Shown piece after piece: positions 546-53,694 of a DNA stretch of 64,000 nt. Every line of letters begins with the position of its first letter. Positions within the stretch are counted from its first letter, which is position 1. The DNA lies in contig RHPI01002503.1 in the NCBI GenBank assembly GCA_009103225.1, positions 1,063,076-1,127,075 of the forward strand. The letters run 5' to 3'. A program made the translations under genes and the position numbers. Below the pieces are notes generated by a model. The model searched no databases. It was not told the DNA's origin and saw only the letters and a program-made list of their open reading frames with translations. The DNA comes from Chlorokybus atmophyticus (taxonomy: Eukaryota; Plantae; Mesostigma and Chlorokybus algae).

Positions 546-1005
546 GTAGTATAACTTGACCATATGAGCAGCAAATTAGAAGATCTTTGGTGCGTTGGAA
601 AGGTCTAGAAGTGTACTGCAAGATTCTGCAATTATATCTTAGCTTCTAGTTCCGTGCAGCGCTAGAATCGTCTAGACAGTAGCATGTGCAGACTGGTAGG
701 TATAAAAGTGACAATCTATAATTTGCAATACAACCTTTAGCTCCCTTGTTTCTTGTGTGCAAGCTTGGTGGTGGCTAAAAGGGGTTGCTAGCGTGTGTCC
801 ACTGGTGTGTGCTTGCTTGTGTGACGATCCAAGGCGCTACACAAGTCGGTGTGTAGCTTCGAGCGCATGCGCGTGCGTACGCGAGTGGCGGGGCGCGCGT
901 GTGTGCTTGGCAGAGGGGGCAAGGTTCCGGTGTGAATACCGTGTCTTTGTGAGAGGGTTGTGGATTAGACCAACTCGCAGGTGACAAGGCACGAGCACCG
1001 TCACA
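546..1005 (+). repeat. 5' LTR, lacking the first 212 bp of the 3' LTR
   Basis: 546-1005 aligns with 5921-6380 without gaps; about 9 mismatches in 460 bp counted by eye. Ends ...GTCACA. Confidence 0.95.
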
Positions 1006-1007
1006 TC

Positions 1008-1019
1008 TGGTATCGGAGC
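1008..1019 (+). promoter_or_regulatory. Primer-binding site (tRNA-iMet type)
   Basis: TGGTATCGGAGC 2 nt after the LTR end; close to the canonical TGGTATCAGAGC. Confidence 0.85.
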
Positions 1020-1099
1020 AAGGTTTACGGAGGTGAGAGAGGAAGTGTGTGGGCGTTTACACTTTATATTCGGAAGCGGAGTGTAGTGTGTTAGTGGAG

Positions 1100-4000
1100 A
1101 TGGAGGGTGCTCGCATGGAAGAGCTTCAAGCTGCCATCTTAGCATTAAGAGAAGAGCTTCATCACACGCAAGCGGCGGCACAAGCACAATGCGAGGCGTA
1201 TGAGCATGCGATGGTGCGTGTACAAATTCCCATGGCATCAAGCTCGCGCGTGCATGTGAAGGTGCCAAAGCCCAAGCCATTCAGGGGTTAACGTGATGGA
1301 GATGCAGTGGACGAATGGATTTTTCAAGTATCGTCTTGGTTGAAGCTCACGGAGGTGCCCACGCATCTGCACGTGGAGGTTGCAGCGACATTGCTTGAAG
1401 GTGCAGCACTTGTGTGGTGGAGGCATCGATGTACGCGTGTTGCAGACGGGTTGGCGCTACCATTGACCACCATGGAAGAGTTGGCACTGGAGGTCAGGCA
1501 TCAATTTGTTCCCGTTGAGAGCGTGAAGGCCGCACGCGACAAACTTGCAGCCCTTGTGCAAATGGGGTCGGTGATGGCGTACACGGCCGCGTTTCAGCGA
1601 TTGGTGATGTCCATACCCAATATGACCGAGGAGGAGCAGTTGGACAGGTATACACGTGGGTTAAAACCTTTGGGGCGTAAAGAAGTGGAGCTACGGGACC
1701 CGAAGACACTCGCGGAGGCTATACGCATCGCGGAGCGTCTCGATGCGTTGTACTTCAAGTCCACTACAAGAAACACTGACTGGAGGCAAAGGCATGGTGA
1801 TCAGCCCCGGGGAGGCTTTCAACATGCATGGAGACGAGGAGAACCAAGTTTAGCACTTGCCAATGGAGGTGGAGCTGACTCTGGGCCTGCACCAATAAAG
1901 GTGGGTGCCATACACACGCATGGAAGTGAGGCGAAGCACGGCGGACGTGGTGAAAGAGGTAAAGGTGTGCGCAAGTGTTATGCGTGTGGGTCGACGGAGC
2001 ATTTGGCGTACGGATGCCCCAAACGAAGCATGCAAAGGCCAACACCAGATGGCAACCCTCGCCGTGATCGTCGCGTCAACACCATGGAGCAAAATGGCGT
2101 GGAGCAGGAAAAACTACTTCCCCCAGAAGGTGAGGAGGCTACTGCTGGGGATAGGAAAAAGCCTCATGCACGGACGGATGCTGTGACATTTCCATTAAAG
2201 AAGCAAGAGGAGATGGCTTTGAACGCGCCAATGGTGCTAAGTTATGCAAACGAGGAGACAACAAAGTACTTTGGGCTTCGAGCACACATTTGCGATGACC
2301 AAGGACGATGGAGAGAGTGTAAGCTCATGATTGATAGCGGTGCCAACATCAACTTCATGAGTATTGATATCGCGCGGCGTTACGGTTGGCTTTCATCATT
2401 ACGAGGTGAAGTGAAGCTCGCTGATGGAGAGCCACCCTCTGGAGGTGATGGCGCTGCGTTTATGACCAAAGAGTTGTGTGTTCGCATTGAGAAGATGAAG
2501 GAGAACATGCGATTTTGCTGCATCACCCTACGGAACGGGTTTGACGGGATATTGGGACTACCGTGGCTATGGCAACATAATCCATCCATCAATTGGAGGA
2601 AGCGCGTGCTCACCATCGAACGAAATGGTGGAGAATCCATTCAAGCTGCGTCGGACGTCATCGAGGCGCGGCACGCACAATCAGGTGGTACGACAATTGC
2701 CCAGATCTGTTATGTGCAATTGAGGAAGTTATTGTCTCCACGGAAGGCAAAGGCTGCATGGTTGTGCGTGGTGCGCGAAAACACTGCAAAGTCAGCACCA
2801 GAGCTGAGTGACGATGTTAAGACGGCTACGATGGACCCCGAGGTGTGTAAACTTGTTAAAGAATACCAAGGTATCATGGTGGACGGACTTCCATCTGGTC
2901 TACCACCTCCACGGAGCGTAGACCACCGTGTGGAGCTGATTGAGGGCGTGCACAAGCCACCGTATCGACCCGTATACAAGTTGTCACCTTTGGAGCTAGA
3001 AGAGGCTAAGAGGCAGGTGGCGGACTTGCTGAAAAGAGGCTACACCAGGCCTCGTAAGTCCCCCTATGGTGCACCTATTTTGTTTGTACGAAAGAAGAAC
3101 GGGAGCTTGCGCATGTGCGTCGACTACCGAGCTCTCAACAACATCACAAAGAGGAATTGCTTTCCACTCCCACGTATCGACGAGTTGCTGGAGCAATTGC
3201 AAGGTGCGCAGTACTTCACAACACTTGATCTTGCTGGAGGTTATCACCAAATCCGCATCGCGCCCGAGGATGTGGAGAAAACAGCTTTTAACACACGTTA
3301 TGGGCACTACGAGTGGTTGGTCGTGTCCTTCGGACTTACGAACGCACCGGCAACATTTCAAACGCTTATGAACAGCGTTTTTGCTGACTTGATTGGTAAG
3401 GGAATCCTCGTGTACCTCGACAACATTTTGGTGTATGCGAAAACAAAGGAGGGGCACGTGGCACTTCTACGGCGCGTGTTGCAGCGTTTGCGCGAACACA
3501 AGTTGTACGCCCAGCTACAGAAGTGCAAATTCTTGCTTTGAGAGGTGGAGTACCTAGGCCACATTGTGTTGCATGAAGGCATCAAGCCGGACCCCAACAA
3601 AGTGCAGGTGGTGCGCGAGTGGGCTTCCCCAAACAACGTAAAGGAGGTGATGTCCTTTTTAGGCCTTGCGGGTTATTATCGCAAGTTTATCATGGGGTTT
3701 TTGCGCATAGCTGCTCCCTTGACTGCCCTACTCAAGAAGGGGAAGCCTTGGAGCTGGTCAGCAACAGAGGAACATGCATTTGCTGCGCTGAAGAAGGCGC
3801 TGATGGAGGCACCAGTCCTGGCTCACCCCGACATGGAAGAGACATTTATTTTGGCTTGCGACGCGTCCGACACAGCCGTCGGAGCTGTTTTGCAGCAAGA
3901 CCATGGCAACGGCCTTCAACCAGTAGCATTCTTCAGCAAGAAGATGAGTGGTGCGGAGCTGAATTACCGCATGCACGAGAAGGAACTTTTAGCGCAAGTC

Positions 4001-5713
4001 ATGGCGCTACGACAATGGCGTTGTTATTTGGAAGGCAAAAAGTTCGTGCTTGAGACGGATCACTCTCCATTGAGGTACTTACAAATACAACCTCATCTAA
4101 GTCGCAGACAAGCTCGTTGGCTTGAGTTCTTTCAACTTTTTGACTTCGATATCAAGTACAAGCCCGGTACGTCAAACGGTGTTGCTGACGCGCTGAGCCG
4201 GCTTAATGCAATTGAGGCCCTGGCTCAAGTGCAGCCCGAGTGGACCAACCAGATTCGGCAAGTGCTTCGTGAGGACGCGGAGGGTATGAAAGTGTTGCAA
4301 GAGCTGCAAAATGCAGCTACGGACACAAGTGGGCATTGGTCAATGCGCGACGGGCTGCTTTGGCACCACGGGCGCTTGTACATCCCCAACGTCGCGCATA
4401 TCCGTGTGAAGTTGCTGAAGGAAGCTCATGACGTGCTCATTGCTGGTCACCAAGGGTTGGAGAGGACTTTGGCAAGCTTGAAGCAGCGTCTTTACTGGCG
4501 AGAGATGCATCGCGATGTTCGCGACTACGTGGCGTTGTGCGACGCATGCCAAAGGGTGAAGGCAAGCAACCACAAGCCAGGTGGGTTGCTGCAACCTCTC
4601 CCTGTGCCATTATCCAAGTAGGAGCAAGTTACCATGGACTTTATCACGGGGCTACCAAAGACAAAAGAAGGGTACGACGCTATACTTGTGTTCGTCGACA
4701 AAACCAGCAAAATGGTACGCTTGGCACCGTGTAGTGAGTCTTGCACGGCACCGGAGGCAGCACGCTTGTTCGTGAAGCATGTGTTTCGTTCTCATGGATT
4801 ACCACGAAGCATTGTGAGTGATCGCGACCCGCGCTTTACAAGTAAGTTTTGGGAGGCGCTGCATGGTGCACTTGGTACCACACTGAAGTTTAGCACGGCA
4901 TTCCACCCGCAAACTGATGGGCAAACGGAGCGGGCCAATCGTGTGATCGAGGACATGCTGCGTTCCTACGTTAACGCGCGACAACACGATTGGGCGGAGC
5001 TGCTTGAGTTGGTGAAGTTTGCGATCAACAACCACCACAATGCAAGCACAGGTGTCACTCCCTTCCTTATGAACTACGGGCAACATCCATTGACACCGTT
5101 GACGGCATGGACACCGCGACGACATGACGTGCGTGTGGAGGCAACCAATGACTTCCTTACAAAGTGCGCGGACATTAATAAGGCAGCTAGGGAGGCGCTA
5201 TTAGTGGCACAAAATCGGCAGAAGCAGTACGCGGACGCGCATCGCCGACACCTCACGTTTCAGGAAGGCGACATTGTGTTACTCTCCGCGAAGCACGTAC
5301 AGGTGCGTACGGGAGTTCGCAAGCTGAATAAACGCTGGTTGGGACCATTTAAGGTCAGCAAAGTTGTCTCGGACGTGGCGTACAAGCTGGAGCTACCCGA
5401 CACCATGCGTGTGCACCCCATTTTTCACGTCTCCCTTCTGAAAGCATATCGAGGACAACCGCCAGAAAGGCCGCCCCCCAAAGTTGGCACGGACGGTGAA
5501 CCAGAGTGGGAGGTAGAAGACATCCTTGGTGAGAAGTTTGTGCATGGCGTACGCAAGTTCTTAGTGAAATGGAAGGGCTATCCGTTGCATGAAGCATCCT
5601 GGGAGCCAGAGGCACACTTGACTAATGCTCAAGACGTTGTGCGTGCCTATCTTGCTCGACGACAACCTCGCGAGCTTCGAGGACGAAGCTCACCTGGGGG
5701 AAGAGGAGTGTAG
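1100..5713 (+). pseudogene. gag-pol polyprotein (Gag with CCHC knuckle, aspartic protease, RT, RNase H, integrase, chromodomain), inactivated
   Basis: Motifs: CYACGSTEHLAYGC, LMIDSGAN, YLDN (catalytic YLDD mutated), ILACDASDTAVGAVL, integrase H-H-C-C and FHPQTDGQTER, chromodomain EWEVEDIL..KFLVKWKGYPLHEASWEP. One frame interrupted by stops ending at 1291, 3541 and 4621. Confidence 0.95.
5696..5708 (+). promoter_or_regulatory. Polypurine tract
   Basis: GGGGGAAGAGGAG immediately before the TG start of the 3' LTR. Confidence 0.9.
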
Positions 5714-6380
5714 CAGTCAAGGCCAAATTTTGTGATTTTCATGGCCGTTTTAGGCCTTATTTGTAAGGTACATGTTTTTTATGACTCGTGGCGGTTATCG
5801 GCGAGTTATGAGTCTGCCGCGGATATCGACCGGGGCCCCAAGACCAGTCCGGAAAGTGCCAGAAAACGGAGGGCCAGTCGAGAAGGGCTCGACCAGATTT
5901 CTGGAAGGGCCTGGCGCCAGGTAGTATAACTTGACCATATGAGCAGCAAATTAGGAGATCTTTGGTGCGTTGGAACGGTCTAGAAGTGTACTACAAGATT
6001 CTGCAATTATATCTTAGCTTCTAGTTCCGTGCAGCGCTAGAATCGTCTAGACAGTAGCATGTGCAGACTGGTAGGTATAAAAGTGACCATCTACAATTTG
6101 CAATACAACCTTTAGCTCCCTTGTTTCTTGTGTGCAAGCTTGGTGGTGGCTAGAAGGGGTTGCTAGCGTGTGTCCACTGGTGTGTGCTTGCTTGTGTGAC
6201 GATCCAAGGCGCTACACAAGTCGGTGTGTAGCTTCGAGCGCATGCGCGTGCGTACGCGAGTGGCGGGGCGCGCGTGTGTGCTTGGCAGAGGGGGCAAGGT
6301 TCCGGTGTGAATACCGTGTCTTGGTGAGAGGGTTGTGGATTGGACCAACTCACAGGTGACAAGGCACGAGCACCGTCACA
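5709..6380 (+). repeat. 3' LTR (672 bp, TG...CA)
   Basis: Begins TGTAG after the PPT, ends TCACA, and its last 460 bp match the 5' LTR. Confidence 0.95.
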
Positions 6381-6381
6381 C

Positions 6382-7260
6382 GGTGACATGCACCAGCTGC
6401 CAGCCGTATGCCATCATCGTGGTACACCATGCTTACAATGTCAAATCACGACCAGTCACTGGTGGACTGATGCAAAAGTTATGCATTTGACAAGTTCTAT
6501 CCGACAGAAACAAGATCCGCACTTCACGCGATTTCTTTCGCAAATCCGGCACGCTATTCCTTCGAGCGAACGAATATGAGAGGTCTTAGCATCGTGCGTC
6601 TGTGATTTCCAAACCGTCTTACAAACTCCAGGAGAAATCACGGTCATTTGTTCCCATGTTGTCGACACAATGGTATACAACCATCTCATATTGCAGAAGT
6701 TGTTCCCTGATGCGGTAATTACACAAGTTAACATCAAACACAACTTGCCTGACAACATAATAGACACAAGAATTCTGCAGTTTTAAGAAGAACCTAACTT
6801 TCACCGCATGCAATCGGTGTGCATTGGTGCACGTGTACTCTTCATGAAAACAGATACCCGTCCGGCTATCACGAACGGCTCTACCGGTACTGTCACCGCC
6901 ATTGAACTAGAAACAGATTCGTTGCTAGCTGACATCAAGGCAATCCACGTGCAGTTGCATGACATTAATCGCATAGTCCGGGTCACCCGCAGCGACCGAA
7001 AATACTGCTATAACACACGGCAAACGTACTTCAAACGTACATTCCCTATGCAATTGGCCTATGCTGTCACCGCCCACAAATGTCAAGGAATAACCATTGC
7101 ACATACCGCATACATCGATATTCAACACGCTTTCTGCTTCGGCATGTGGTAAATAGCGCTGTCAAGGGTGACACACAGATCCTACCTCAAGTTAAAGGAA
7201 TTGCCCGCACCACAAGATTTAACACCGACACAAACGTTTCAAAGCAACGAACGAGTCTAA
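6382..7260 (+). pseudogene. PIF1-family (SF1B) DNA helicase, C-terminal half, cut at motif III by the LTR
   Basis: One frame reads GDMHQLPAV, LTSSIRQKQDPHFTRFLSQIR, TNGSTGTV, FPMQLAYAVTAHKCQGITI and GMW*IALSRV. In-frame stops at 6577, 6784 and 7150. Confidence 0.88.
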
Positions 7261-7672: not shown

Positions 7673-8865
7673 ATGGCTGACCTCTTCAGCGCTGCGTTCG
7701 ATGCTGCGGTCAAGCAGCTCGACAAGCTTGATCCGGCAACAGACACTCCGTTGAGGGACGAGCCGCTACCTTGGACTGTCAACCAACGGCGGTTGCTGGA
7801 CAGCCATAGGTACTTACCGGAGGAATACTATGACCGCTACGACATTTCCTACAACGACATCGACCGCATGATCACTAAAGGAAGACAGAACGAAAAAGAT
7901 TGGAAGCGCCAACATCAGCAGGAAGTCGGCGCACCTACAGGTAAATGAACCACACGTTCATACTGAGTTTGTAATGACTACAAAGTTGCAAATTGCTACT
8001 GTTCTTGGTAACACCCCAATGATTATCTAACAAGGTCGTGCATTAGGATCCGCCAAATACTTCTTCGCCAAGTTTGGCAAGCAATTCGGCCCAAACATGA
8101 ATAGGTACGACGCGTTCAAGGCGCTCAGCGAGATCATGAACCGGGAACTCGGACGCGACGTAAAGACAAGGGTCATTCAGACAGTACAGCTGTTGGAGAT
8201 TATCTTTTAATGCAAAGCAGCAACGTGGGAAAAGTGCAAGCATCTAACTCAAGAAAAGGCAGCCAAGATCGTTATTGCACTGGACAAAATCGCTGAAAAG
8301 GAAGGAACAACACTGACACCCCAACGTCATAGAAAAAAGATGACTTATCTCCAGGACTGCTTCGACATTGCTTCGCCATCAATATCCCGACGCAATCAAG
8401 CATGTCCACGGTAACACCAACCAGCGCAGAGACCACCACAAAAAAAAAACACACTGGATCCAGCGTGGGAGCCAGCAATACCACCTTTACAAACTGCCGC
8501 ATACACCAACAGGTACAGTACGCATGTGCAACTCGTACATACCCTGCTACAACACAAACAATAACCACCAATTGTTAGGTGGTGTGTACGTGGGGCAATC
8601 CGTTCATCCCCACCAGCGGTACACCCAACACGCACGTAAATCGCCCCAGAAAGTGAAAGATGTGTTGATAGATGCCCCTTTTCAAAAACAAGTCACCATG
8701 GAGGTGATGGGTTCCTACGACTTGCAAGCAGAAATCGACGCGGCGAAAACCGCGCTGACGCTGAAGCTGCGTCGTTAAGGAGTGCCCAACTTGAATACCT
8801 TGGTGGGAGCACCACTAAAGACTCGCCAAGGGTGGCTGTTCAAGCGGAACGACATTATGAAGTAA
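7673..8865 (+). pseudogene. Spliced gene ending in a GIY-YIG endonuclease domain
   Basis: GT-AG introns 7941-8034 and 8513-8578 give HLYKL-HTPTGGVYVGQS...RYTQH and a distal helix plus LN motif (AEIDAAKTAL...GVPNLN). Stops at 8208 and 8776 and a frameshift near 8370. Confidence 0.75.
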
Positions 8866-9261
8866 ATGTCGCCTCCTCATTAAACATTACATGGCATTTG
8901 CTGTATTAGTTGCAACTATATTCCCCAGCATAAACCCGAATAGGTGTATGATTCATGCATGTTTTGCAAATGAAAGCGCATTTGTTAAAAGCGCCTTCCC
9001 CACACAAAGCAAAACACATAGTAACAATATGTGCGACATATAACATTAAAGGCGAAAAACATCATCTGTAATCAAAACTGCCGCACAACTACACGGCTAC
9101 AACTAATAACAACAAAAATCTAAAGTAACCTCGCTACTAAGGCGGAGGACTACCCTCCTCCGACTCCTCGTGCTCTGGCTCCGAGGGTCCACCTCCGCAT
9201 CCGGCGGACCCACCTCCTCCAGGATCTCCTCGATCTCTTCCTGCCGCCGCTGCACTCCTCG

Positions 9262-10201
9262 TCACCTACGACGCCACGCTGCTTTATCGTCCTCAGATGA
9301 AGGCGGAGACTCACATGTCTCTGCTTCTTCGGAGGGCTCCTGGCCGCGGTCGAGCGCCCGCTGCCGGCAACGTGCTTTCGCAACGCGCTGACGCTCTTTG
9401 CGGATGCGGCGCTTCGTCTTCAGCTTCGCCTTCATGATGCGACGGCGGTTGACAATGATGTTGATGTGCCGTGGGTCATGGGCTTGCCACTCGTGAAAGT
9501 CGACGGTGCCGGGGTTCAAGGCATCCCCGCGGAAGACCTTGCTCAGATCACTGTCCTTCTTCATAATTGTGACCCGACGACCATGAAGAGCAAGCAGGTT
9601 CCTGCATCATAACATATTAACATTGACACAACATGTCAAGCATCAATCATAAAACGCCTGCCACCAAGAACAAGCACACAACTCAACTTACATGTCATGC
9701 ATGTATTCGGTGACAAACATGTCCCCAGCATTCTGAAGTGCATTCAGAGCTTCAGCCCTCCAGCGGAAGGTGGGTGTGTGAAACACGTCAGCTGCAACAC
9801 CGCTTCAGTATATATGCAATTATAACAATTCAAATACAGATTACATACCGTATTTCTTGTCAGCAGCGTTAACACATCCGCGCACAACTTTGCTTAAAGA
9901 CAACTTGGGGATGACTGGAGCGGTACTCTTCTGCATCCGCCGGATTTCGCGCAGAGCTTGCGTAACGCGTGGCCTGCATGACCACCCAATTACCAAAAAG
10001 TACATATCAAGACATATGTTAAGACATTTGCTTACTTGCGGCGAGGACGCGCGGGAGGTGCAACCGGCAAGGCTTGATCATGTGCGACAATTGCACCTGC
10101 GCCAGCGGGTGCAGCGGCGGCAACAACAAACCGCCACCAGGACCCCGAGGACGCGGGTAGGCACCATCGACGCGACGACTGCACTGCTTCGTGCATGCCA
10201 T
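9262..10201 (-). pseudogene. Divergent histone H3 variant (CENH3-like) with C-terminal extension
   Basis: Exons 10201-10036, 9973-9849, 9791-9692 and 9601-9262 are joined by phase-compatible GT-AG introns. They read MACTKQ...RPRRKPRVTQALREIRRMQKST...RWRAEALNALQNAG...MNLLALHGRRVTIMKKD. One frameshift lies in exon 1. Confidence 0.88.
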
Positions 10202-10659
10202 TGCCAACACCTACAAACCTGCCCCGAACTACACTCAAGCACGATGATACACAATAGCAGCGACGCAACAACAACTGAGCAGAGCTCAAAGACGTTTTAA
10301 AAATACCAATGCGCCACACGATCCAAAAGAAACACATATGAGCCGCCAAAACGTCGAGGCGGTTTCGCCTGCACAATCGGCTGCCAATTGGCCTACGAAA
10401 CAGCCTGTGGAGCCGTCACCACCCTAGCCCTAAAAGTGCCATTTCACAACAAGAATATGCCGATAACCGTACCTAGTAAACGCGATCGATGCTAATGTGC
10501 ATGACCGCGGTTAACAAACACATGTACAGGCGGGCAGTGAGCATCACCGCTGGTCAAAGAGCCATCATTGGTCTCATGTCGTTTTGTGCACACATGCGAC
10601 GGAGTCGTGGTCCGTATCTATGGTTCATGGCTGGTGCGCGTCTCATGATTTAGTTCAAA

Positions 10660-10855
10660 TCATGGTTAGTTGACTGGCGGGCTACAGTCAGAGCGGTCGT
10701 CAATTGACCGGCAGTAGTAAAATGCAGCGAATCAACTGTGCTTGGCTGCTAACTGCGGTCAGCTGCGGCAATTGAGCCGCAGCTGACCGCAGTTAGGCCG
10801 CCGCTGCTGGTGGCCTGATGCTCCATACCGAGAGCACTCGGCCACGCTGCTAACC
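10660..10855. repeat. Inverted copy of the 1-200 repeat with a perfect 21-bp hairpin (10749-10796)
   Basis: CTAACTGCGGTCAGCTGCGGC-aattga-GCCGCAGCTGACCGCAGTTAG. Confidence 0.85.
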
Positions 10856-11046: not shown

Positions 11047-11829
11047 ATGCACACACACTTATGCACACACTATGTGCTGCCAATTGCACGACCATGCATG
11101 TGTATGCACAGCGTCACAGCACGTTTACACTTAAAGGCTTTTGTATTTCAACAACATCGGTGACTGTGTGTTGACAAAAAACCAAGAATTAAATCTCTGC
11201 AATGGACCAAGCACATTGCTTGAGAAGTCACTTGCTGCACAGACCAGTGCGCTCTAGACTTCACCCCTTGTGCAGCTCAACCTTGACCCATGCACAAACC
11301 TGCACGATTGGTGTGTATGTGCATAGATGCTTGTTTGGTCAGGGCTTTGCAAGTGTGCGACTGTTCCAGATGCATGTGCAATGCGCAAGTTGTGCATAAC
11401 GTTGCATTAAAATTGGACAAGATGTATGCATATGCATCTGGTGCACTTTACAAACACTTGTACCTGCCACAACCTCACGCCCGGGCCTCCCTTCTAGTTG
11501 AGTGCCACACCTCAGCTGTTATGCGGGGCCTGCACGTGTGCGTTCAGTAGCGTGTGATTATTTATATATATTTGCTCAAAGTGTGCATGTGTATATGCGA
11601 CAACTGTAATTGTCTGATGTGAAGACCACCAACCTACAGTAGGACTGGACAGCCTGCCTGCTTGGCCATGCAGCGAGAATAACGAATGTGCAGCGTTTCA
11701 GCGGTTATAGCGATCCTCGCCACCTGTGAGACCTGTACTGTGGTGTGGTGTGATGTTTGTGTGTGTGGCAATGTTTTATGTGTTTGTTCAACACATGGAC
11801 ACACACAAACAAACAATAAAGTGCTCAAA

Positions 11830-14220
11830 CTGTCTCATAGGCTGCACTGGACAGTGCCGCCTATGAGCCCGCCTAAGAGCCCGCCTCATAAGCTTTGCTG
11901 CACAGTGCGGTCCATAAGGCCAATCTTTAAGTATGAACATGCATGGGCGTGCACATTCACACATAAGTGATGTCGAATGTCTCATATAACGTACGCACGC
12001 ACGCGCATGAGCGTGCGTGCGCATGCACACTCAGCGTACCTTTAATTTGGAGAGCACGAGCAGCTGGGGCGAGGTAGTGCTTGCATATATAGAGCCGTGC
12101 ACTACAATCTGCTCTCTTCTCGCAGCGGGCTGATTGCTAGCTAGGGCAGTCGGCGTACCTGCACGTGTGCATGCGGTCGCGCATGCACGTGCGCATGTTC
12201 GCATGCTTGCGTGTGCGTGTGCGCATCTTATTAAGGAGGAAGAGGAGGGCNNNNNNNNNNNNNNNNNNNNNNNNNNNNNNNNNNNNNNNNNNNNNNNNNN
12301 NNNNNNNNNNNNNNNNNNNNNNNNNNNNNNNNNNNNNNNNNNNNNNNNNNNNNNNNNNNNNNNNNNNNNNNNNNNNNNNNNNNNNNNNNNNNNNNNNNNN
12401 NNNNNNNNNNNNNNNNNNNNNNNNNNNNNNNNNNNNNNNNNNNNNNNNNNNNNNNNNNNNNNNNNNNNNNNNNNNNNNNNNNNNNNNNNNNNNNNNNNNN
12501 NNNNNNNNNNNNNNNNNNNGGGGGGGGGGAACACCTGTTCTTGTGCTTAGTGTATACGCAGAACTGGCTCATGGGCCGCACTGTCCACTGTGGCCTACGA
12601 GCCAGCTTATGGTGGCTCGTAGGCGGCACGGAGCCGCCTATGAGACCGTCTCTATAGTCTGTGAGCCAATGTTAACAAATGTGTGTATGTGTGTAAGTGC
12701 ATGCACGAGTGATAAAGAGCCCAGCAAGTGTAAGACAGAGCAAGACAACATGCGTGTACAATATGTGTGCGCAAACGCACGCGCACGAGTGATCGTTTGC
12801 GCACACATATCCTCGCCCTTCCCTATCCTTCCCCCTCTACTCACCTGCTGTTCAGCTGTTGCACCTCGCTGTAGCAGCTCCCACATGCAATCTTGCGCCC
12901 TCCAAAGAGCAGCAGCGTCGGGCTCCCACCAGCGGTGATGCCTTGGAGCATCATAGACTCTAAAGGTGATGTTCACCAGCGCGCTACTGGCCTTGCGCAA
13001 CGTCGTGGGCAAACACTCCGCAGCGGGCTGACCATGTGTCCTGTAGGGGACAGGTAAGTAAGCATGTGAATACACATACATGTTAAGCCGCCAAGAGTCA
13101 CACATGCATAAGCATGCATGCACGCGCACCACATGCCTGGTGTGTGTTGCATTGCAGCATGTAGCTGTGCTCTTGACGTGTGAAGACACACAAAAACAAT
13201 TGCAAGCTAGGCAGTGCCGTCTGTGCGCCCATTATGGCAACCGCCTCATAGGCTGCACTGATCAGCCTATGAGCCCGCCTCATAGGCTGCACTGTTCAGT
13301 GCAGCCTATGAATCAGCCTGAGGCGGTTGCTACTACAACGGCCTCATAAGCTACACTGGACAGTGCGGACTAAAAGGTTAATTACGAGTATGTGTACTTG
13401 TGTATGTGCGTTTGTCACACAGAAATACATGTATACTTGCAGGCGCGTGCGTGTAAGCCCCCTCCTCCCCCCTCCCCCCCCCCTTTCCTCTTGCCTTACC
13501 CCTCCGCTTACCTTGCCAAGGTACCTGTGGTTCAGCAGCACCTGCTTGCAATGCCCTCCAGTCCCGCGTCTTGCAAACAAAAGTAGCATCAAGCCCGACA
13601 GTGGTGCCCCGGATCACCACTGCAGTGCTGCCCTTGCGCGGCGTCAGGGGAAGGCCCTGTTTGTCACACACATTTGCACGTGCGTGTATAATAAACAAAG
13701 TGCAAGGATTGTGGCATGTGTGATAAAGAACACTTGGGCTAGCATGCGCATGCCTGTGCGGACAATGCGCTCCATGAGCCCAATTGTAGGTGTGTGTGTG
13801 CACATGCACACGTGCACGCACACTCATGCGGGTGCGCACACACACGCTCATTGCACCTCAGGGCTTTGAAGATGGTGATGGAGTGCACGGGAAGCTAGGG
13901 CAAGGTAGTGCTTGCGCACGCAAAGCTGTGCGCACCAAAGTTCTCTCTTTTCAGCACCGTGTTGCTGATTGCCAGCTTGGGGGCAGTCCGTGTACCGCGT
14001 GTGCGCGCGCGTTATGCGTGCTTGTATGTGTGTGCGTGCGCATCTTTTTGAAAAGGACGAGATAGGGGAAGGGGGGGGGGGGGAGGGGGCTGTTCACATG
14101 CGTGTGTACATGCAAAACTGCCTCATAGACCGCACTCTCCAGTGCGGCCTAGGAGACAACCTACAACAATTGGCTCATAGACCGCACTGGACAGTGCGGT
14201 CTATGAGCCAAACAGGAACC
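11830..14220. repeat. Diverged ~0.7-0.9 kb repeat units marked by clusters of CTCATAG...CTATGAG hairpins
   Basis: Hairpins at about 11834, 12566, 13244, 13280-13311 (15-bp stem), 14122 and 14172-14209 (perfect 18-bp stem, 2-nt loop). Segments 12030-12250 and 13850-14080 are homologous. Confidence 0.75.
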
Positions 14221-15875: not shown

Positions 15876-16850
15876 CTTGTGCTTACACCTGTACTTGCTG
15901 ACGTGTGCAAGTAGTCGCGAGCCGCGACTTGCTCACGTCAGCAAGTAAGCACAAGCTCAGCTACCCTGGTCCGTACGCTGCACTGCGTGCAGTGCGGTAC
16001 AGTCTACCCCCGTTATAAGAATCACGTTTATCTTTCAGCTTTTCATTCCACTAACGGGGTTATTCTCTTGGCGCTTATAAGATTATATATTCTTTTATCG
16101 TTTGAAGAATATATATTCTGGTAATGGGGTTATCGACCGATGACCTCAAGCCACATCATCATTTGCTGACGTGGCAAAATATGGATTCAGATTTTCTTTA
16201 TTAAATCATACAAAATAATATATAAACCTAATGATTTGATTCTATTTTTATATAATTATCCCAATATCAACAAGACAATCACGCTATTAACAAAGTACTC
16301 CCCCGTTACAAGACTGAGCCCACTTAAATTTTCAAGCCTTCTCTTTAGTCTTATTACGTACAAGACTATTCCACTAACCGAAGATATTTGCCTGTAAAAC
16401 CATTGGTCCTTTGATAATCCATGATCTTAGCGGGGTTATTCCCTTAAAGCGAAGTCTTTTAACGGGGGTAGACTGTACCACGCGTCTAGCGCACAGCACA
16501 AGTTGATACAGTGGTACATTGTGCCGCACAGCACGTATCAGGTGTGGTGCGTTGTGCGTTGCGCCGTACACGCGGTACCGCGGCTGCTGCGGTTCGTAAC
16601 TTGCCAGGGGTGCGACCAGCCCTGAGCCTCTTGACCGAACGGCGTACTGTACCAGTGGTGTACTGGTTTTGCAAGCCGCGGGACACGCGACCAGCCCTGG
16701 TTCGGTCAGTTGAACCAAACCGGCGGGCTCCTGGGCCAGACCACCGGTGGTCCGATCACGGCGGACCAGTCGTGGCACTGGTACACTGAGCCGTGCCAGA
16801 CATGGCCTGCGCGCCGCCTTCGACTGGTCCGCGCGTAAAAAGCCCTGTGA
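15876..16850. mobile_element. Putative non-autonomous DNA element with a long left hairpin and GGACCAG-rich right part, interrupted by a MITE
   Basis: Fold-back 15876-15955 (CTTGTGCTTA/TAAGCACAAG, TACTTGCTGACGTG/CACGTCAGCAAGTA). Repeated GACCAGCCCTG motifs, and motifs shared with 318-545. Confidence 0.5.
16000..16475. mobile_element. Tc1/mariner-type MITE
   Basis: TIRs CAGTCTACCCCCGTTA(T/A)AAGA at both ends, TA target duplication (15998-15999 and 16476-16477), AT-rich non-coding interior. Confidence 0.9.
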
Positions 16851-19591: not shown

Positions 19592-22048
19592 TCATAGAGT
19601 GCTAGTGTAATCACAACGGCGCAGTTCACCATTCTTCAACGCACGAACTGCAACACGCACCTGACCTACGCAACCGAGCTGCTTCAACCGATCCACCTCA
19701 CTACACAGGGCTCCTGACGACGAGCCCTCATCCATAGCCCTGCCTTCCAATTCTGACACATAGTCGGAAACATCCAGCTGCACGCCAACATAGAAAGCCA
19801 CCTGCAATGGAGTGGCCACGGTTGCAATGCAACTGGCTGAAGGCATTTTGAGAGCAACGCCTCACACAAAGCTCTTTCAGCATTCACAAGAGCGTACTAC
19901 AGTACATTGCGTACATACCTTCCCATCAGAACTCCGTACAGGCGCGATATGTAGGTGGTTCCAGAATGATGCTCCATTCTTCCTGTAATTGAGCAGACGG
20001 ACCGTGCAAGGCTTTGCAGCTTTCACTGCTTCGCGCAACTTGGCAACCTCCTGAGGGTCGGTTCCGGGACCTTGCAAGAAGCGGCAGTTGCGCCCCACTA
20101 CCTCCTCGCGAGAATAGCCTGCATTGCAGGTACCAGTGCTTAAACAGATGCACATGTGTGACAAGTCACGCTTGCAGCCTTCAACCAGCCAAACCACCAC
20201 CAAGACATGCACTAAGTACTCACCTGACATCCTGCAGAACACATCGCTGGCGTGTATGATTGGACAATCATTCAAATTGGGGTCCGACCTGCAATGAGGT
20301 GTTAAGCTAAATAGTGAGCACAGACTCACTCTGATCTAAGAGTTGCCTGAACCTATGCAATGAAATGGAACTCACAAGACAAAGCTTTGCTGGATCCGTG
20401 TCAGGGACAGAAGAAGAGAAGAGCTGACAGACGGGACCGTGACCGGTTTTCTCAACCCTTCCCTGGCCAACTCCTCCTCGACATGGCTGATAGAGTGCAC
20501 TACCCTGTCTGATGTAGCCGCTGCCATGTCGCCGGTCTGCGCTCCTATGGCTTCAGGGGCCGTTGGGGCTGCAGGAAAGTTTAAGTCCTCAGCAGAACCA
20601 GAGGGTGCTGTACCGAAGCCATGCTGGGCCTCCGGCTCAGGTTCGGGCTCATGCTCCAGACTGTGGAAGGTACTAAGGCGGTGACTATCTATGGCTGCAA
20701 AGGCGAAGGCAACGCCCTGATGCCCAACTTGCTTGCAAAGGGGTGATAGATCAGTTTGAACACCAACGAAGAACAACACCTTCCCTTGAGTATCGTAAAC
20801 CTGCGATGATGTCAGAAGTATGTGTTATAGTTTGCAACGTCCCCCACCCATGCTACTTCTACTGTACTTACTGCAGACATGTGGAACAAGTTCCAAAATT
20901 TTCTCCCATCCTTGCGGTAGTTCAAGATGCGAACCTGTAACAAACCAGTGAGTCATACACACAGGCACCTGCAAAGTGAATGTACGCAGCAGCCCTACAA
21001 ACTCAGCCTGTACTACTTACCTGGCATGCACGCTCCTCGCGGATAGCATCTCGTATCTCTAATACTGCTCGCCTATCCGTTTCTGGCCCCTGTTGCATGG
21101 AACGACATAAGTGCGGCGAGGAATCAGGCTGCACGTGGCACATTCCAGTACCATCACAAGCATACCTGCAAGAACCTGCAGTTGCGGCCGATAACCTCAT
21201 GTGGCTCATACCCTGTGAGCTTGAAAAACCCGCCGCTAGCAAAAACAATGGGGTTATCCTGTGTTACACCAAATTCAGTACCGGAAAAGAGCAGACAGGC
21301 ACGCGACGAACACGTGAAAGAATTCCTTCAAACTATGCCCTAACTGGAAGACTGTCAGCAGCGGAACCGCGATCCGCAGTGTTGATTGGCAAGCAAATGC
21401 TGGATGGCAGTGTAACGGACCATTTGCAAACCATTGTACTGCACGCATTGAACAGTATTCTTGCAGTTGGCTGCCTATGTACAGCCCAGCCTAACAAAGA
21501 ACTGCTGCTTGTGAACCTTACACAAGAAATGAGGGCAGACTACAACTGACACTGGCTGAATTCAGCTCCGATCGGAGAGCACCTTCCAGGGCATTCTGGT
21601 AGCAAAACGTACCAACGCAAAGTCCATTGGCAAGCTATGCGCTTCTGAGCGATTCCTATAATGGCAACATTACGCTAGTGCGCTGCACTGTAGCAGCACA
21701 ATCCGTATAATTGAGGCAATAGATAGATGTTACAGAATTGATTAACATTGCTGGTGTAAAAACTGAGACCACAAAAGCCACGCAGCACAAGCTCCCTCGA
21801 AAAAAATCACACAACAGCAGCAAACTGGCCAAAAGATTCCGAGACTTTCCCAAATAAGTAACCACAGAGCTGCTGTGGAATGCTTGTGGACTCACCGCCA
21901 TACGCGGGTTGGACACAGCAAACGTATGGTTCAAGCGGTTGAGCGCGTGCTGCAGCTTGGCCAGCTCAGGGTCATCAGTATTGAGCGCAGCGCCAATGCC
22001 GACAGCCGACAGGCCATCGCTGTCGGAGCTGTGGCCGTCGCTGCCCAT
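19592..22048 (-). CDS. LLP: LOV/LOV (PAS/LOV) blue-light receptor protein, two LOV domains and no kinase
   Basis: Spliced exons give two GRNCRFLQG motifs, [39 protein letters not shown] and a C-terminal [15 protein letters not shown] before the stop at 19592. This matches land-plant PLP/LLP architecture. Confidence 0.9.
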
Positions 22049-22481
22049 CGTGTCAGGCCCAAGCTCCAGGTTACGCAACAACTTACTCACCAGCGACAGC
22101 CACACATCAGATCAGCTTGAAGCACACGACACCTTCAAGACGGCCTAGACCGCCGCCACCACCACCACCACCGTCACCGTCGCCGTCGCTGTGGCTCACA
22201 CACGTCCCTCAAACCCTAATTGATCCGTACTGTTTGCCGTGGCGGTCGTATGCCGACGTGTACCAGTCCAATTTCCAGAGTCCGAATCTGGTTTGATACG
22301 TCCTGATGTGCTTCGGGTCTATCTGATCCGGTTCTGGCGAGAAAGATGACAATTTTTGCATGTACATGTGAAGTATTTCCATTCGTGGCCTGAAGCCTCC
22401 AGGGTGAAGGTGTTGCTTTTGCTGTGTGAACAGCGGTGGCGGCGGCGGTGGGGTGGTGGGGAGCGTCTGTCTCAGCTTTGT

Positions 22482-30730: not shown

Positions 30731-32615
30731 CTACCGATGCAGCTTCAACAACCCAACCTGCTCCAAAGTCTTGTACAGCTCCAGCTCCTGCTTAAACGGG
30801 TGCACGTCTTCACGTCCCGGCTTGGGTCTCTCCCAATCATAGTAGTGCGGTTGCGTCTGGTTATTGAAATACAGCTCAGAGTTGTACCCGAACACGTCTA
30901 TGGGCGCAATGCACAAGTGCAGTGCCAACATAACCCCGACGAGACCCGAGCTTGGCCTTTGCCCCGCACGATCAACAGCGTCCCACGCCATGCAAAGGAA
31001 CTCCAGGTCAAACATGAACGCCACATCGAGGGGGTGTTTGGACTTCTGGTTCACCCACGAACGCATCGCGGGGTCGCGCATCTGAGCGATTGTTATCTCA
31101 CCAGGCTGCTTGGGCTCTACGTACGGGCCGTTGTAGAGTCGGATCGTGGACTTGCGACCAACCTGTGTGTGTGGGTGGGAATGGTTGGGTTGGGATGCCG
31201 TGCACGTGCATGCGTGTGTGTGCATGAGCAGCGGGTGCGCGTGTGTCAGCAATGCATTGTCTCAACACTGTCCACGCGCTTTGTTGGGCTTGCCTGGCGT
31301 TCAAAGCCTTTGGTCCTTCCTTGGTTGAACCTGATGACAACGTCTTTGCTGTCAATGAGAGACCCGAAGCTCGCATTGCGCAGGGACCCGGCATTACCCA
31401 CAACAGCGCACGTGTACACCCTCTCGTTCTCCTCCTCCTCCTCCCTCTCCTCACCCCCACTCCTCCCCTTATGTGTGTCACCCTTCCTGGCGACCTCCAT
31501 GGCATCAAGCATGTCCTCGAGGTCAGCGTCGCAGTCGTGTCCTCCTCGCCGGTCAGCGAGGCAGCTCCCGCTTACAGCAGCAACAACATCAGCGAGGGGA
31601 GCCGCACGCCGTAGGAGCGCCTGGGCTATGTTGGGTACCAGCTTGATCAGACCCATCCATAAACGCCAGCTGACGGCCCCGCTGCCGCCGCATGATATTG
31701 AACCACGCATACCCAGCCTTGGACCTGTTAGGATTGCATGTGATGATTTAAGCCGAGCGAGAAGCAGCTTAAGCTTTGAAGGGAGACTCTGGAGACTTGA
31801 TTGATACAGTGAGGCTGAACGCTTCCTGGCCGCTGATTGTCTTTCAGCATTTCTATCCTCCTCCTCCTTATCTTTCTCCTCTTGCTTCACCTCCTCTTTC
31901 ACCTCCTCCGTCCTCCCTTCCTGCTCCTCTTCCTCCTCTTCCTCCTCCTCCTCGACGTCCTCCTCCTCCTTCACCGTCTTCAACTCTTCAGTGTCATCAG
32001 CGACCTTGCCACCATGTTGTCTTTCCTCCTCATCACTATTGACTAGTGCTCCGTTCTCCAAGTTGTTTACTAATGACTCAACAACAACAATACTTCCTTC
32101 TTCTCCTCCTCCTCCTGCTTGTTCCTGAATCTGCCTTTCGTGTCTTTGCAGTTTGGATGAGATGTCCGCGTTGGCTGTTGATAGGGAGTTGTGCTGCTGC
32201 TGGTCTCGGAGAGGGTTGTTGTTGTTGGTGGTGGCGACAAGCGAGCGGGTTGGGTGTATGTGCAAAGGCAAGCCTGCGAAACTGAACAGAGAGACAAGTG
32301 CACCAGTGAGCCTAACAGATTGATTGAAGTGTTTGCCAATTGTAAGGGTTTATTGAATGTCTCTAACGTTCAAAACGTAAGACTATAGTTGTTGCTTTTC
32401 TTCCACCATAACAACAACCAAGCAAGCATAGATGTATAATTGCATGAGTGTGCTATTTACCTTCCGTGCAGCGGGAAGATCCATCCAACATTGACAAGCA
32501 GCAGTCCAAGGACGACGGCGTAAGGCAGCTTCAGCCTGTACAGAGGGACGCCCTTGCCGCCGCCCCCTGCTCCTGCACCTCCTGCTCCTGCTCCTGCTCC
32601 TCCGCCTCGCCCCAT
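30731..32615 (-). CDS. GT29 sialyltransferase-like type II membrane glycosyltransferase
   Basis: Exons 32615-32461 (TM anchor), 32281-31294 and 31162-30731. Sialylmotifs L (CAVVGNAG...IDSKDVVIRFN), S (PSSGLVGVMLALHLC), III (HYYD) and VS (HPFKQE). Confidence 0.9.
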
Positions 32616-43205: not shown

Positions 43206-45340
43206 TCACACGCGCTGGAACTTGCTGTACCGAGTCAGTCCGGTAACTTCCAACCACCTGTAAGGATCAGCCTGTGCTTTAGGCGGCTTGAGTTTCAACA
43301 CTGCTTTCATTGCCTCCAGCATGGTTCGCTCCATTGGCCGTTTGCGGGTGCTGCCTTCAACCTGTGCAGAGTCACTTGCAGCCTTTGATGGTGGGGAAGG
43401 CCGCGAGCTGGTTGTTATTTGCACGAGTGCTGGTTCAGCGTGTTGCTGGTCGGCTGCCGGCCCCTGGCTCTGACATTGTTGAGCCATCTGATTGGGGCTG
43501 CTGGGGGCCAAGACCTGAGAGATTGTGCCAACTTCTTTCATGGACTGAACTGTCATGCCTTGAGACTGTGTGTTCTCCGTCGAGTCTGTGGGTGGCCTTA
43601 CACGCGGTTGACTGCTGGCTGACTTTGCTCTCTCAGCTGTTGCCTGTTCAGTGGCTGCCGGCACAGGTTTCTGAAGCTGTGGAGCCATCTCGGTAGGACT
43701 GCAGGGGGCCAAAACCTGAAGAATCGTGACAACTTCTTTCGTGGACCGATCTACTTTGCCTTCAGACCGTGTTGTCTGTGCGGACTCTGTGGGTGTTGAA
43801 ATTGCACGAGGTTGATCACTGGCTGACTTTGTCTCTGGGATTGTTTTTGAATCAGGTGTCCTAACCGTCACTGTCGTTGTCTTGACCATAGTGGATGCCG
43901 CATGCTCACGAGCCGGCGCGGATGCAGTCGATGTGCTGGGTGCTGCTGCTGCTGCTTCTGCCGCAGATGCAGCAGCACCAGCAGACAACAGAGCTGCTTC
44001 AAGCACTTTGCTCCCGATGCCCACGGGTGGCGATGGCCGCCACGCTGCTGGTTGTGAGCGAGTCTGCTGCTGCTGCTGCAAATGGTGCACATTGTCTGGG
44101 CTGCTGCTGCTTGTCTGCTTGTCTGCACCTTCCAGCTTGGTGGTTGCTGTGGCTGCTGGCGCAGATTGTGTTGACGCTGTTGGTTGATGGGAGACAGCCA
44201 CTGCACCTTGTGATGCCGTGGACTTTGTCTGCTTCGGTATGCTTGCGGGCTTTGTGCGCTGGTGTGGTGCATACAACTTCGACTGGGCGCCTTGAGCAAC
44301 TACAGCAACGGGAGCGTCGCTGTAGTTGCTCAATGCGGTCTGATCGGCGCCTCCAGCTTTGGAGCTGCCTGCAATCTGTGACTCGCTCAGCACCTGCGTG
44401 TCTTGAGTGTCGCGCGCCGGTCCCAGCGGTGAGGCCTTGTGTCGCGTGTCTGCGCCATCATCGTCGCGTGTTGCTTCATCATCGTCTTGAACGCCTGTTG
44501 TGAACCTTGATGGTTGAGACTCCGGAGTCTGGAAGAAGTCTTCAAAAGCGGGGGACATGTCGTGGGTGGGCGTCTCAGCCTGTGTTTGATACTGCCTTAC
44601 TTGCACACTGCAACGGGCAGATATAGTCAGAGCGAGAGAAAGCTAACCAGTGCAAGGGCTGAGTACAGCTGTCGGGCATGACAAGTACGCATGTGCACGC
44701 TTGTCATGGTAGACAACCGGGCTGGTACCTGTCATGAGACTTGCGGCCAGACATGCCCAAAAGGCGAGAGACCCCTGCAGATAACCTCGATAAAAAGCGT
44801 GGCTGTGTTGACGGATGGTTCTCAGAGGTGTCTTCCGCAGGTTCTGCCAATGGTGAAGCCTGAAGCCCAATGTGTTAATGACATGGAGACTTCAAGCAAA
44901 GTGCCTGTTTCGAACTGCATAGCAAGTTAATTACTTGTGGGTATGGTTCGTGTCCAACAAGATGTTGGTCACGGGCTTCAGCATTCTCCAGATCAACATC
45001 TCGTGGCTTGGCAGCTTGATGCTCTTCACTCCCACGCTGAACTGCTATTGGCAGAAGCACAGGAGGGTTCCCATGCATTGGAAACCCGCCTTGGGCCTGT
45101 TGGAAACAATACAGGTAATGTCAAACAAGTACCATGCAAGCGCACGCAGCATAGAACACAACTCTAGGTGACCAACCTTCGCATTGCTTCTTGATACAGT
45201 CCATGAAGCCCATGGGTTGATGGCGGGCTGTTCTGCTGCCTCTGGAGCAGCAGGCTGATCCCTTCGAGTGGTAGTCTCCTCCTGATCATCTGACTCCCAG
45301 CCTGCATAAGTGCCATACAATGCTTGCTTTCACGGCACAA
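43206..45340 (-). CDS. Uncharacterised low-complexity Ser/Thr/Ala/Gln-rich protein (partial model; may extend to ~46250)
   Basis: A 1.4-kb open frame (43206-44606) with an internal ~70-aa repeat, plus upstream segments ending in GT donors. No recognisable domain. Confidence 0.5.
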
Positions 45341-51844: not shown

Positions 51845-53220
51845 CAAGGGACAGATTGGGTCTGAATGAGGAAGCTGCTCCTGGCACATTCTGAATTACA
51901 AACTTGACCTGGCTTGCAAGCAGCAGACGTCGGACGAGCGGTATCATATTCTGGTGTCTCCAGGATGTGCCATGTGCCGCCCGTTGAGGTGCTGGGATAG
52001 CACCTGAATAGGCCTAGCATGGTGGACTGGCCCAGATGAGTTCGTACTCGCTCAGCTCTCCTACACTCAGGGTGCATACTTCGCGGTGTATGAAGGGCAG
52101 CGGGTACTCAGAGAAGGGACTTATGTCCATCCCGGTCACGTCAAAGCCTGCGTGGTATAGACCGACACTGGCACCGCCACCGCTGCAGAATAGGTCGAGT
52201 GCCCTTGGTCTGCGTGTGCGTCCCAGCTTGTTGTAAAATGGCGTGTATGTGGTCAAGGCTGGCCGTGGTGCTGGCCAGGGACTAACAATGATGCCGTCCG
52301 GGCTTACTTTGCGACTGACGTTCTCCCCTCCGGCGCGCAGATTATGGCGTGCCCCGTCAACTGATGTGTACGCGAATACGTTGTGCCCTTTGAAGTTGAT
52401 GGTTTGTGGTCGATCACCGTCATCGAATACTATACGGTGCTGCCCTGCAAAGACATTTTCCATTGCACCATGCATATATGATGCGTCCTCAATCTCGCAC
52501 GCCACGAAGCGATGCTGACCTAACGCTTGCTTGAATGATTCCACAACGCCCGCATACCATTCCCCATCCAGCGGCCAATGCACCATGACACTCACACCGA
52601 TCAGCTGCTCGCATCCCAACTTAACTGCGTTCCGCAGCCGATGCAGTGCGCTGTCCAACGGTTGATGGTCTGCCTCCTCTACAGCGGCCAGGGGATGGAA
52701 CTGCCCACGCCCACACCGTGCAAGACTGCTCTGAATGCGACAACAGCTTCAACATGCATGAATTAAGCATACGCCCAACATAACATGCAGTGATACGTCG
52801 CGGTCCACTCTTGTGGATTACCTCCACAGCATCCACCACCTGTCCACTAACCACATGTCCCGGTGTTGTCCATGTGAAGAAGCGCATGGGTTCCCCTCGC
52901 CACTCGAAGCATGAGCGCGAGCACGATTCGCATATGCACTGCACGCAATGGAAAAACTTGGGTTCCTTGCACAGTACTTTGCCGAGGCGGCAGCCAAACA
53001 CGTCGACATTGTGTGTGGTGTGATGCCAGCAAGCAGCACTCAAACCGTGGCCTACCGTTTGCACTCGCTGGCATTCGGTCAAGTGTGCTCGCATTTGCTG
53101 CCTACGGTCATTGACACATACGTACGCATTGCGTTGTGGGCACACCAAGCATGGTCTCCTAAGAGAGGGGGATTCAATTGCTGCCGCCGACATCATGCAA
53201 AACATGAATCGGCTGCCCAC
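51845..53220 (-). pseudogene. Cys-rich plus Tudor-like domain fused to a cytosine-5 DNA methyltransferase (motifs I-VI), truncated
   Basis: LIGVSVMVHWPLDGEWYAGVVESF..HRIVFDDGD (Tudor; 75-nt intron 52519-52445), RALDLFCSGGG (motif I), IWASPPC*AYS (motif IV, stop at 52014) and, in the same frame, FVIQNVPGA (motif VI). Confidence 0.82.
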
Positions 53221-53316
53221 AAACTGAGCGAGACTTTAGGGTATGGGCATCAATTTGGGGTTGCCAGCTTACAAACCCTAAATGAGTCACACTTTAGGAA
53301 GCACGACTATACCATG

Positions 53317-53356
53317 GACGGTATTACAGTACCATGCAAAGTACTGTAATACCGTC
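53317..53356. repeat. Perfect 16-bp hairpin
   Basis: GACGGTATTACAGTAC-catgcaaa-GTACTGTAATACCGTC. Confidence 0.9.
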
Positions 53357-53694
53357 TAAGGTATATCAACATGAATGGTACTCCATCCATAAATGGTACT
53401 ACAGTACAAGGATACTGGTATACTACTACGATCGTAGAGTAATACTGTGCTGTCATGCCATGGAACCCAGAGCGCTGTCCGAGTTTGTTGCTGTCAATCA
53501 CGCTCTGAACCTGCAAGGTATGCAAGCCATGCACTGACTCATGCGCCGGGCAGTCGTCATACACATGTACAGCCAATGCTTCTGACTACAGCAGATCTCG
53601 GGTGCACCATGCTGCAACTATGCACGTACATATATGGTTCACAGGAAGCCAACACAAAACAAAAATACATGCATAATTGCCATCATGGCGGGGG

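Follow-up and report, generated by a model that had tools for sequence, protein, structure and literature searches.

The locus described here raises the question of whether a transposon can encode its own centromeric-type histone. In a 64,000-nt stretch of genomic DNA from Chlorokybus atmophyticus (hereafter the window), the original prediction identified a spliced, frameshifted CENH3-like histone H3 gene, located beside PIF1 and GIY-YIG pseudogenes and between inverted hairpin repeats, and proposed that it is carried by a transposon or an endogenous virus. Transposons are known to carry erasers and writers of chromatin marks, and fungal transposons carry an H3-like cargo without demonstrated function. 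If an algal element has kept a spliced H3-family gene in frame through long divergence, this would show a transposon supplying its own nucleosome subunit, and, if the CENH3 ancestry of the gene is functional, would offer a direct test of selfish DNA encoding the centromere mark in the centromere conflict.

The H3-like gene and the element around it

The H3-like gene lies on the minus strand and comprises four exons separated by three GT..AG introns. Exon 1 (10201-10036) encodes the N-terminal tail and carries a one-base frameshift near position 10133. It is followed by intron 1 (9974-10035, 62 nt), exon 2 (9973-9849), which encodes helix N and helix 1, intron 2 (9792-9848, 57 nt), located in loop 1, exon 3 (9791-9692), which encodes the end of loop 1, W84 and helix 2, intron 3 (9602-9691, 90 nt), which interrupts codon 107 in phase 2, and exon 4 (9601-9262), which encodes loop 2, helix 3 and a C-terminal extension. 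The GC content of the introns is 32–39% vs 51–66% in the exons. At 731 nt, the spliced CDS lacks one base for a continuous frame, so that the start motif is read in a frame other than that of the histone fold. The 192 codons that run from the last part of exon 1 up to the stop are open, with clean splice sites and 42% identity of the product to canonical H3. The genomic frame covering exons 2–4 matches the Pfam Histone family (PF00125) with an E-value of 1.3e-7 and 32.3 bits (cut-off 26.4), and all 74 matches to the histone protein in a library of 1.84 billion proteins are of the H3 type, in agreement with the presence of an H3-type fold including helix N. The predicted exon-intron structure is thus borne out by the splice sites and the GC content, the H3 fold by the Pfam score and the library matches, and the frameshift in exon 1 by the length of the CDS. 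A word-index search of exon 4 against longer proteins confirmed none of 164 candidates. Of 288 metagenome stretches for exon 4, a single one (L001) matched; its contig is unspliced, resembles prokaryotic DNA and lacks a histone fold, and the match of 8 residues was put down to chance.

The N-terminal tail is ~14 residues longer than that of H3 and retains K4, after which no lysine occurs before the fold; equivalents of K9, K27 and K36 are absent. Within the fold, R49, R83, D106, N108, L109, H113, R116, T118, D123, L126 and R131 are kept. The alteration of R63, P66, F67, C110 and I130, together with the retention of 32 of the 59 columns common to H3 and three green CENH3s, makes the formation of nucleosomes less than certain. 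Helix 3 is followed by 86 additional residues (23 K/R and 13 D/E), in which AlphaFold predicts a basic helix of 42 residues (mostly pLDDT 87–97) before an acidic end; this tail, which the original prediction does not mention, is matched by none of the 74 library proteins. An AlphaFold model made from the frame with its introns left in had low confidence (pLDDT 66.6, pTM 0.37) and was set aside.

The gene lies between two imperfect terminal inverted repeats (TIRs) of ~330 bp, each of which folds into two hairpins. The left TIR (5-330) has GC-rich hairpins at ~5-57 and 69-119, and its true end may lie to the left of the window; the right TIR (10551-10851) has a hairpin with a 21-bp stem (10748-10797) and a second hairpin. 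Positions 5-165 and 10851-10705 are 79% alike in inverted orientation, and the similarity extends inward to 330/10551, where the inner part scores 35, above all 500 shuffles (maximum 34). A 14-nt core of the TIRs occurs four times in the window, exclusively at these two ends (0.09 occurrences expected). The match between the repeats, the shuffles and the core count confirm the predicted inverted hairpin repeats, and the position of the gene between them supports the prediction that it lies inside a mobile element. The inner end of the right TIR and the start codon of the histone gene are 350 bp apart. Just inside the left TIR, the region 180-530 contains 14 copies of GGACC/GGTCC in ~350 bp and a palindrome (492-519), which could be either subterminal repeats or part of another nested element. 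In contigs from two public sequencing runs (X1 and X2, see below), the hairpin core 10748-10817 joins several different inner flanks, which suggests that related element families share the right end.

The left part of the element is interrupted by a Ty3/Gypsy-like retrotransposon on the plus strand (546-6380), whose LTRs differ at 9 of 460 nt. Its gag-pol region (1292-5713) contains two in-frame stops; the family was read from the ORF text. The 3' LTR (5709-6380) is taken to start at the TG that follows a purine tract, and since it appears to begin at 5709, the 5' LTR (546-1005) lacks its first ~212 bp. This missing start probably marks a deletion that also removed the left internal part of the element. 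Two bases past the 3' LTR, a frame opens at the GDxxQL motif of a PIF1-family helicase, of which the C-terminal half is present (6382-7260, plus strand, three internal stops). The retrotransposon apparently landed inside the helicase gene, and the deletion would then have taken the first half of the helicase and any Rep or transposase. The predicted PIF1 pseudogene is confirmed by matches to PIF1 helicases in the PDB (from E 4.8e-10) and to phrog_325 (E 2e-18), and its ESM Atlas neighbors are led by eukaryotic Pif1_2B clusters; word-index searches against longer proteins confirmed none of 62 candidates for the ORF and none of 157 for the read-through sequence. Further downstream lies a decayed, probably spliced gene (7673-8865, plus strand) whose end encodes a GIY-YIG nuclease domain, with putative introns at 7941-8046 and 8513-8578, internal stops and a frameshift. 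Its Pfam match is weak (E 0.09, below the cut-off), and the prediction of a GIY-YIG pseudogene is upheld by the ESM Atlas score of 0.92 (146 of 256 features shared, with viral clusters as neighbors) and by the tyrosine spacing, as removal of the 66-nt intron puts the canonical ten residues between the two tyrosines of the GIY-YIG motif. The histone gene is oriented tail to tail with the GIY-YIG gene, and both convergent genes are followed by a TGTAA motif, the chlorophyte poly(A) signal. The hairpin pattern has no match in metagenome contigs, and in a scan of prokaryotic genomes none of 57 stretches was confirmed.

Several other features were observed in the window. Palindromic hairpin repeats of ~50 nt that form a second family (6–8 copies, including the inverted pair 11824-11879 / 13267-13322) occupy 11824-14219 and probably represent the ends of small non-autonomous hairpin-ended elements, and isolated long hairpins with stems of 18–20 bp are found at 15892-15947 and 44288-44337. 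A decayed block on the minus strand (52000-56100) contains part of a C5 DNA methyltransferase (phrog_363, E 5e-12) that follows a Tudor-like stretch, a RING-like cysteine cluster (both recognized by eye) and a palindrome (53315-53358); possibly this block is a further element that carries chromatin cargo. Host genes on the minus strand include one that encodes two LOV/PAS domains and whose introns are mostly short (19600-22100; PAS_9 E 2e-15 for one exon); a gene for a sialyltransferase-like glycosyltransferase of family 29 (GT29) is located at 30731-32349, also on the minus strand (E 3.5e-12). These two genes and the TGTAA motif suggest that the host is a green alga. A tandem array of 4–5 units of ~53 nt is found at 60338-60577.

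CENH3 or H3 ancestry of the histone

CENH3/CENP-A proteins are distinguished from canonical H3 by the absence of Gln at position 68, of Phe at 84 (often replaced by Trp) and of Thr at 107. The window protein has Ser, Trp and Met at these positions, respectively, and its loop 1 (positions 73-83) comprises 20 residues vs 11 in canonical H3 (+9), exactly as stated in the original prediction, which counted these four traits as evidence for CENH3. Part of that evidence carries less weight, since among simulated H3s diverged to 42% identity (under a crude uniform-site model) the combination of non-Gln68 and non-Thr107 arises by chance in 33%, while W84 appears in 2% and all three changes in 0.6%. 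The C-terminus of CENH3 after helix 3 is short and recruits CENP-C; in the window protein this place is taken by the 86-residue extension with its long predicted helix. CENH3s have further been described as having a longer loop 1, a longer, unalignable N-terminal tail and a fold ~50% like that of H3 (PMC8015243), to which the loop (+9), the tail (~14 residues longer) and the 42% identity of the window protein correspond.

Of the 22 columns where at least two of three green CENH3s differ from H3, the window protein has the residue of CENH3 at 7, that of H3 at 1 and a third one at the remaining 14. A CENH3-type profile made from 14 W84/non-Q68 rows scores it at 97.5 bits vs 92.8 bits for an H3-type profile made from 19 F84/Q68 rows (+4.7 bits); for 60 randomly diverged H3s the same difference is -13.2 +/- 5.0, with a best value of -3.5. 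Over 16 residues that span loop 1 and the beginning of helix 2, the protein is identical to Volvox CENH3 at 10 and to H3 at 6. Green algal CENH3s (matches from Volvox, Gonium and Chlorokybus, and Chlamydomonas CENH3.1/3.2; bioRxiv 10.1101/2025.03.28.645958) share with the window protein W84, non-Gln68, non-Thr107 and the stretch F82-R-W-x-A-E-A-L that opens helix 2. They are nevertheless far closer to H3: the three green CENH3-type matches, including those from Volvox and Chlorokybus, are 69–73% identical to H3 with a loop 1 longer by one residue, whereas the window protein is 42% identical with a loop longer by nine and, unlike them, has a long C-terminal tail, is probably multi-copy and is linked to a transposable element. 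Judging from translations, an intron appears to be retained at codon 107, as intron 3 here, in the W84-type proteins P0013, P0014 (named cse-4) and P0025, and in codon 106 in P0019 (W84), P0029 and the canonical-type P0032.

The window fold is 35–47% identical to 52 comparison folds; canonical H3, at 42%, falls within the 38–46% range of the W84 rows, and the nearest row of all (47%) is of the Q68/F84 type. CENP-A chimeras top the list of PDB matches by just 0.4 bit. Phylogenetic placement, proposed together with the original prediction, leaves the window protein unplaced on a long end branch both in a first tree (3.97), from which 23 of the 74 matches were left out (10 canonical duplicates and 13 partial or interrupted folds), and in a second tree of 28 hand-picked rows (1.86). 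Under the AU test, placing it with green CENH3 (p 0.121) and placing it with canonical H3 (p 0.176) are both acceptable. The predicted CENH3 identity therefore stands in so far as the fold leans towards CENH3 beyond what random divergence of H3 produces, while the trees do not place the protein; on the residues and profiles discussed above we favor, without strong conviction, a CENH3 ancestry of the window histone. If CENH3 is essential, as in Chlamydomonas (bioRxiv 10.1101/2025.03.28.645958), the frameshifted copy cannot be the sole CENH3 of its host.

Other copies and the possible role of the histone

Two public runs, X1 and X2, contain 0.09 and 0.05 of the words of the element, respectively, and yielded 19 and 10 contig records aligned at 80% likeness; their variants could reflect mixed strains or species, and one of the runs may be the source of the window itself. 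One X1 contig over exon 1 shows 5 differences in 227 nt (98%), no gap and the same frameshift, which argues that the latter is not an assembly error. Another X1 contig has 42 differences in ~425 nt (~90%) and an extra base behind position 10133 that brings exon 1 into frame. X1 also has two contigs that cover the last part of exon 4, with 21 and 19 differences in ~230 nt (8–9% from the window). Among the records listed, seven rows with indels fall within 9143-10370, six of them in non-coding sequence, and the single coding one is the frame-opening base in exon 1; given ~802 coding vs 562 non-coding bases, this avoidance of exons has a rough p of 0.005 for the 16 of 30 pieces listed. Within the 40 of 113 differences listed, changes in the histone exons are synonymous in 5 codons and non-synonymous in 4, numbers too small for a dN/dS estimate, and PIF1 has 5 synonymous and 11 non-synonymous codons plus the stop. 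One PIF1 contig carries an in-frame 12-nt deletion, and another, from X1, reads Arg at the first stop of the window copy. Likeness to the window is 91–100% for PIF1 pieces and 88–98% for histone pieces, and both TIR end types occur in X1 and X2 (the loose ends match the left-end sequence). The region 8353-9107 is without contig cover in both runs, and among the 16 of 30 pieces listed no single contig carries the histone together with PIF1, GIY-YIG or a TIR. Thus, the diverged copies anticipated by the original prediction do exist, one of them with an open exon 1, while their joint travel with helicase, nuclease and hairpin ends is not seen in any of these pieces. The 98% copy with the frameshift, the ~90% open copy and the non-coding location of the other six indels suggest that the window histone is probably a multi-copy gene under selection rather than the sole CENH3 of the host. 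That the frame is still open and cleanly spliced when identity is down to 42% further implies long selection after the gene left its parent, as neutral decay would not leave such a frame.

The best explanation, which we put forward tentatively and at somewhat short of even confidence, is that the window contains a frameshifted copy of a CENH3-derived cargo long held by the element, whose intact copies make H4-paired nucleosomes that shield it. The histone would likely derive from host CENH3 and be expressed in intact elements from near the right repeat, convergently with the helicase and the nuclease. The protein could pair with host H4 and build nucleosomes that, with K4 as the only tail lysine, could not bear the H3K9 and H3K27 silencing marks, and the element would thereby be shielded from silencing. 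The predicted basic C-terminal helix might serve as a DNA anchor or as a nuclear import signal. This hypothetical anti-silencing role is suggested by a tail without equivalents of K9, K27 and K36, although the N-terminal tails of CENH3s are normally lysine-poor too. Chromatin-acting cargo has been described in DNA transposons, including TET/JBP, SET and Vandal proteins (PMC12730594).

A possible but unlikely alternative is that the histone is a passenger, i.e. that the element took up a genomic copy of a fast-evolving host variant of CENH3 or H3 with a long tail, introns and promoter included, like Pack-type elements or the dead H3-like copies of fungi, and that this copy is now decaying. The ~90% open-frame sequence would then be the host gene, and the avoidance of exons by indels would be expected. 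The retained introns, sized like the short host introns of the LOV gene, fit such a capture, as do the frameshift in the window copy, the finding of just one open exon 1 among the contigs listed and the known capture of host genes by Helitrons (PMC11417382). It is harder to reconcile with the much smaller divergence and shorter loop 1 of green CENH3-type proteins, with a tail unmatched in the library, and with the occurrence of at least two exon 4 variants 8–9% from the window within one run.

Alternatively, a CENH3-like protein loaded by the CENH3 pathway could steer insertion to centromeres or give excised circles a kinetochore, a scenario that we regard as improbable. The CENH3-like residues are indeed concentrated in loop 1 and where helix 2 begins, a region around loop 1 being recognized by chaperones (PMC8015243), and Helitrons have been found in centromeric arrays (bioRxiv 10.64898/2026.09.17.752431). 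On the other hand, loop 1 is longer by 8 residues than in green CENH3s, and this copy of the element lies ~9 kb from the host LOV gene, in a region where several host genes but no satellite array were seen. The 86 residues that follow helix 3 also replace the short C-terminus by which CENP-C is recruited. In our reading, centromere targeting is less likely than an anti-silencing role, and it is just as improbable that a green-algal transposon family has domesticated host CENH3, with a new predicted DNA-binding helix, as its own centromere determinant.

It is very unlikely that separate insertions own the two ends and that the histone belongs to the host, as a gene or pseudogene caught by chance amid transposon debris. 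The repeats are indeed only 79% alike, the hairpin core has several flanks, and the left end coincides with the edge of the window, with the TSD unreadable; but the core is confined to two inverted sites in 64 kb, the similarity continues ~330 bp inward, both end types recur in X1 and X2, and the pieces of PIF1 and histone show the same range of divergence. Least probable is the endogenous virus that the original prediction offered as a second option, which here would be what is left of a Polinton-like virus, a transpoviron or a giant virus and would make the histone a viral one: an SF1B helicase, GIY-YIG and long TIRs typify Tlr1, Polinton-like viruses and transpovirons (PMC5499653), and the Atlas neighbors of the GIY-YIG domain are viral, but the cargo genes are spliced, the remaining ~5 kb (part of the element being deleted) contain no capsid, ATPase or polymerase gene, the PIF1 neighbors are led by eukaryotic clusters, and four scans of viral contigs by exact words, a weak method, confirmed no locus.

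Comparison with known transposons and histone cargo

The succession of PIF1 and GIY-YIG genes and the hairpin ends suggest that the vehicle is most likely a rolling-circle element of the Helitron2/HLE2 type. MULEs and Pack-MULEs are recognized by long TIRs, a DDE transposase and a 9–11 bp target duplication; the long imperfect TIRs and the convergent genes of the window element would fit this description, but no transposase remains. With Helitron2/HLE2 the element shares a PIF1-family helicase and hairpins at both ends, and gene capture is known in that group (PMC3627910, PMC11417382, PMC5148889). The repeats do not agree with those of Helitron2, an element that inserts at a T-T site: its inverted repeats are asymmetric and measure 8–16 bp (8–15 bp in PMC3627910), whereas those in the window measure 160–330 bp. 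With respect to the fusion of HUH Rep and PIF1, the C-terminal half of PIF1 is present, and everything upstream of GDxxQL has been lost to the LTR insertion and deletion. A GIY-YIG domain occurs in one Sphagnum family of HLE2, and histones are absent from the captured domains named in the main text of the same report (PMC11417382). The pairing of an SF1B helicase with GIY-YIG is also found in Tlr1 and Polinton-like elements (PMC5499653).

H3-like cargo borne by transposons has already been published in fungi (PMC3538342, PMC6710886). What is new here is the lean towards CENH3, the host, the vehicle and the C-terminal tail, as well as the kept introns and the signs of selection; in the open-access literature that we searched we found no report of a transposon-encoded CENH3. 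Among previously described histones of selfish elements, a close counterpart is the H3L gene of Pyrenophora tritici-repentis, carried by 26 hAT copies with ESTs and two of them frameshifted (Manning et al. 2013, PMC3538342). Like the window gene, it is a diverged H3-like gene located between TIRs in many copies, some of them frameshifted, and as described there it fully matches neither H3 nor CenH3 and has insertions in the N-terminal tail. The two differ in host and vehicle (a fungus and a hAT transposase vs an alga, PIF1/GIY-YIG and ~330-bp hairpin TIRs), and the CENH3-leaning fold and the basic 86-residue tail set the window protein apart. The P. tritici-repentis copies are near-identical and were ascribed to drift (PMC3538342), whereas sisters of the window copy differ by up to ~10% and their indels avoid exons. 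Amplification of H3-like copies by hAT elements is also known from Pseudocercospora fijiensis and its relatives, with 784 copies in P. fijiensis (PMC6710886); according to that report the P. fijiensis copies are intronless, canonical H3 and all killed by RIP, in contrast to the three introns and the signs of selection found here. A parallel outside transposons is the bracovirus H4 (PMC9145170), where a selfish genome has likewise taken over a host histone and changed its tail. It is encoded in a wasp provirus, is close to host H4 and enters host nucleosomes, whereas the window gene belongs to the H3 family and resides in a DNA transposon.
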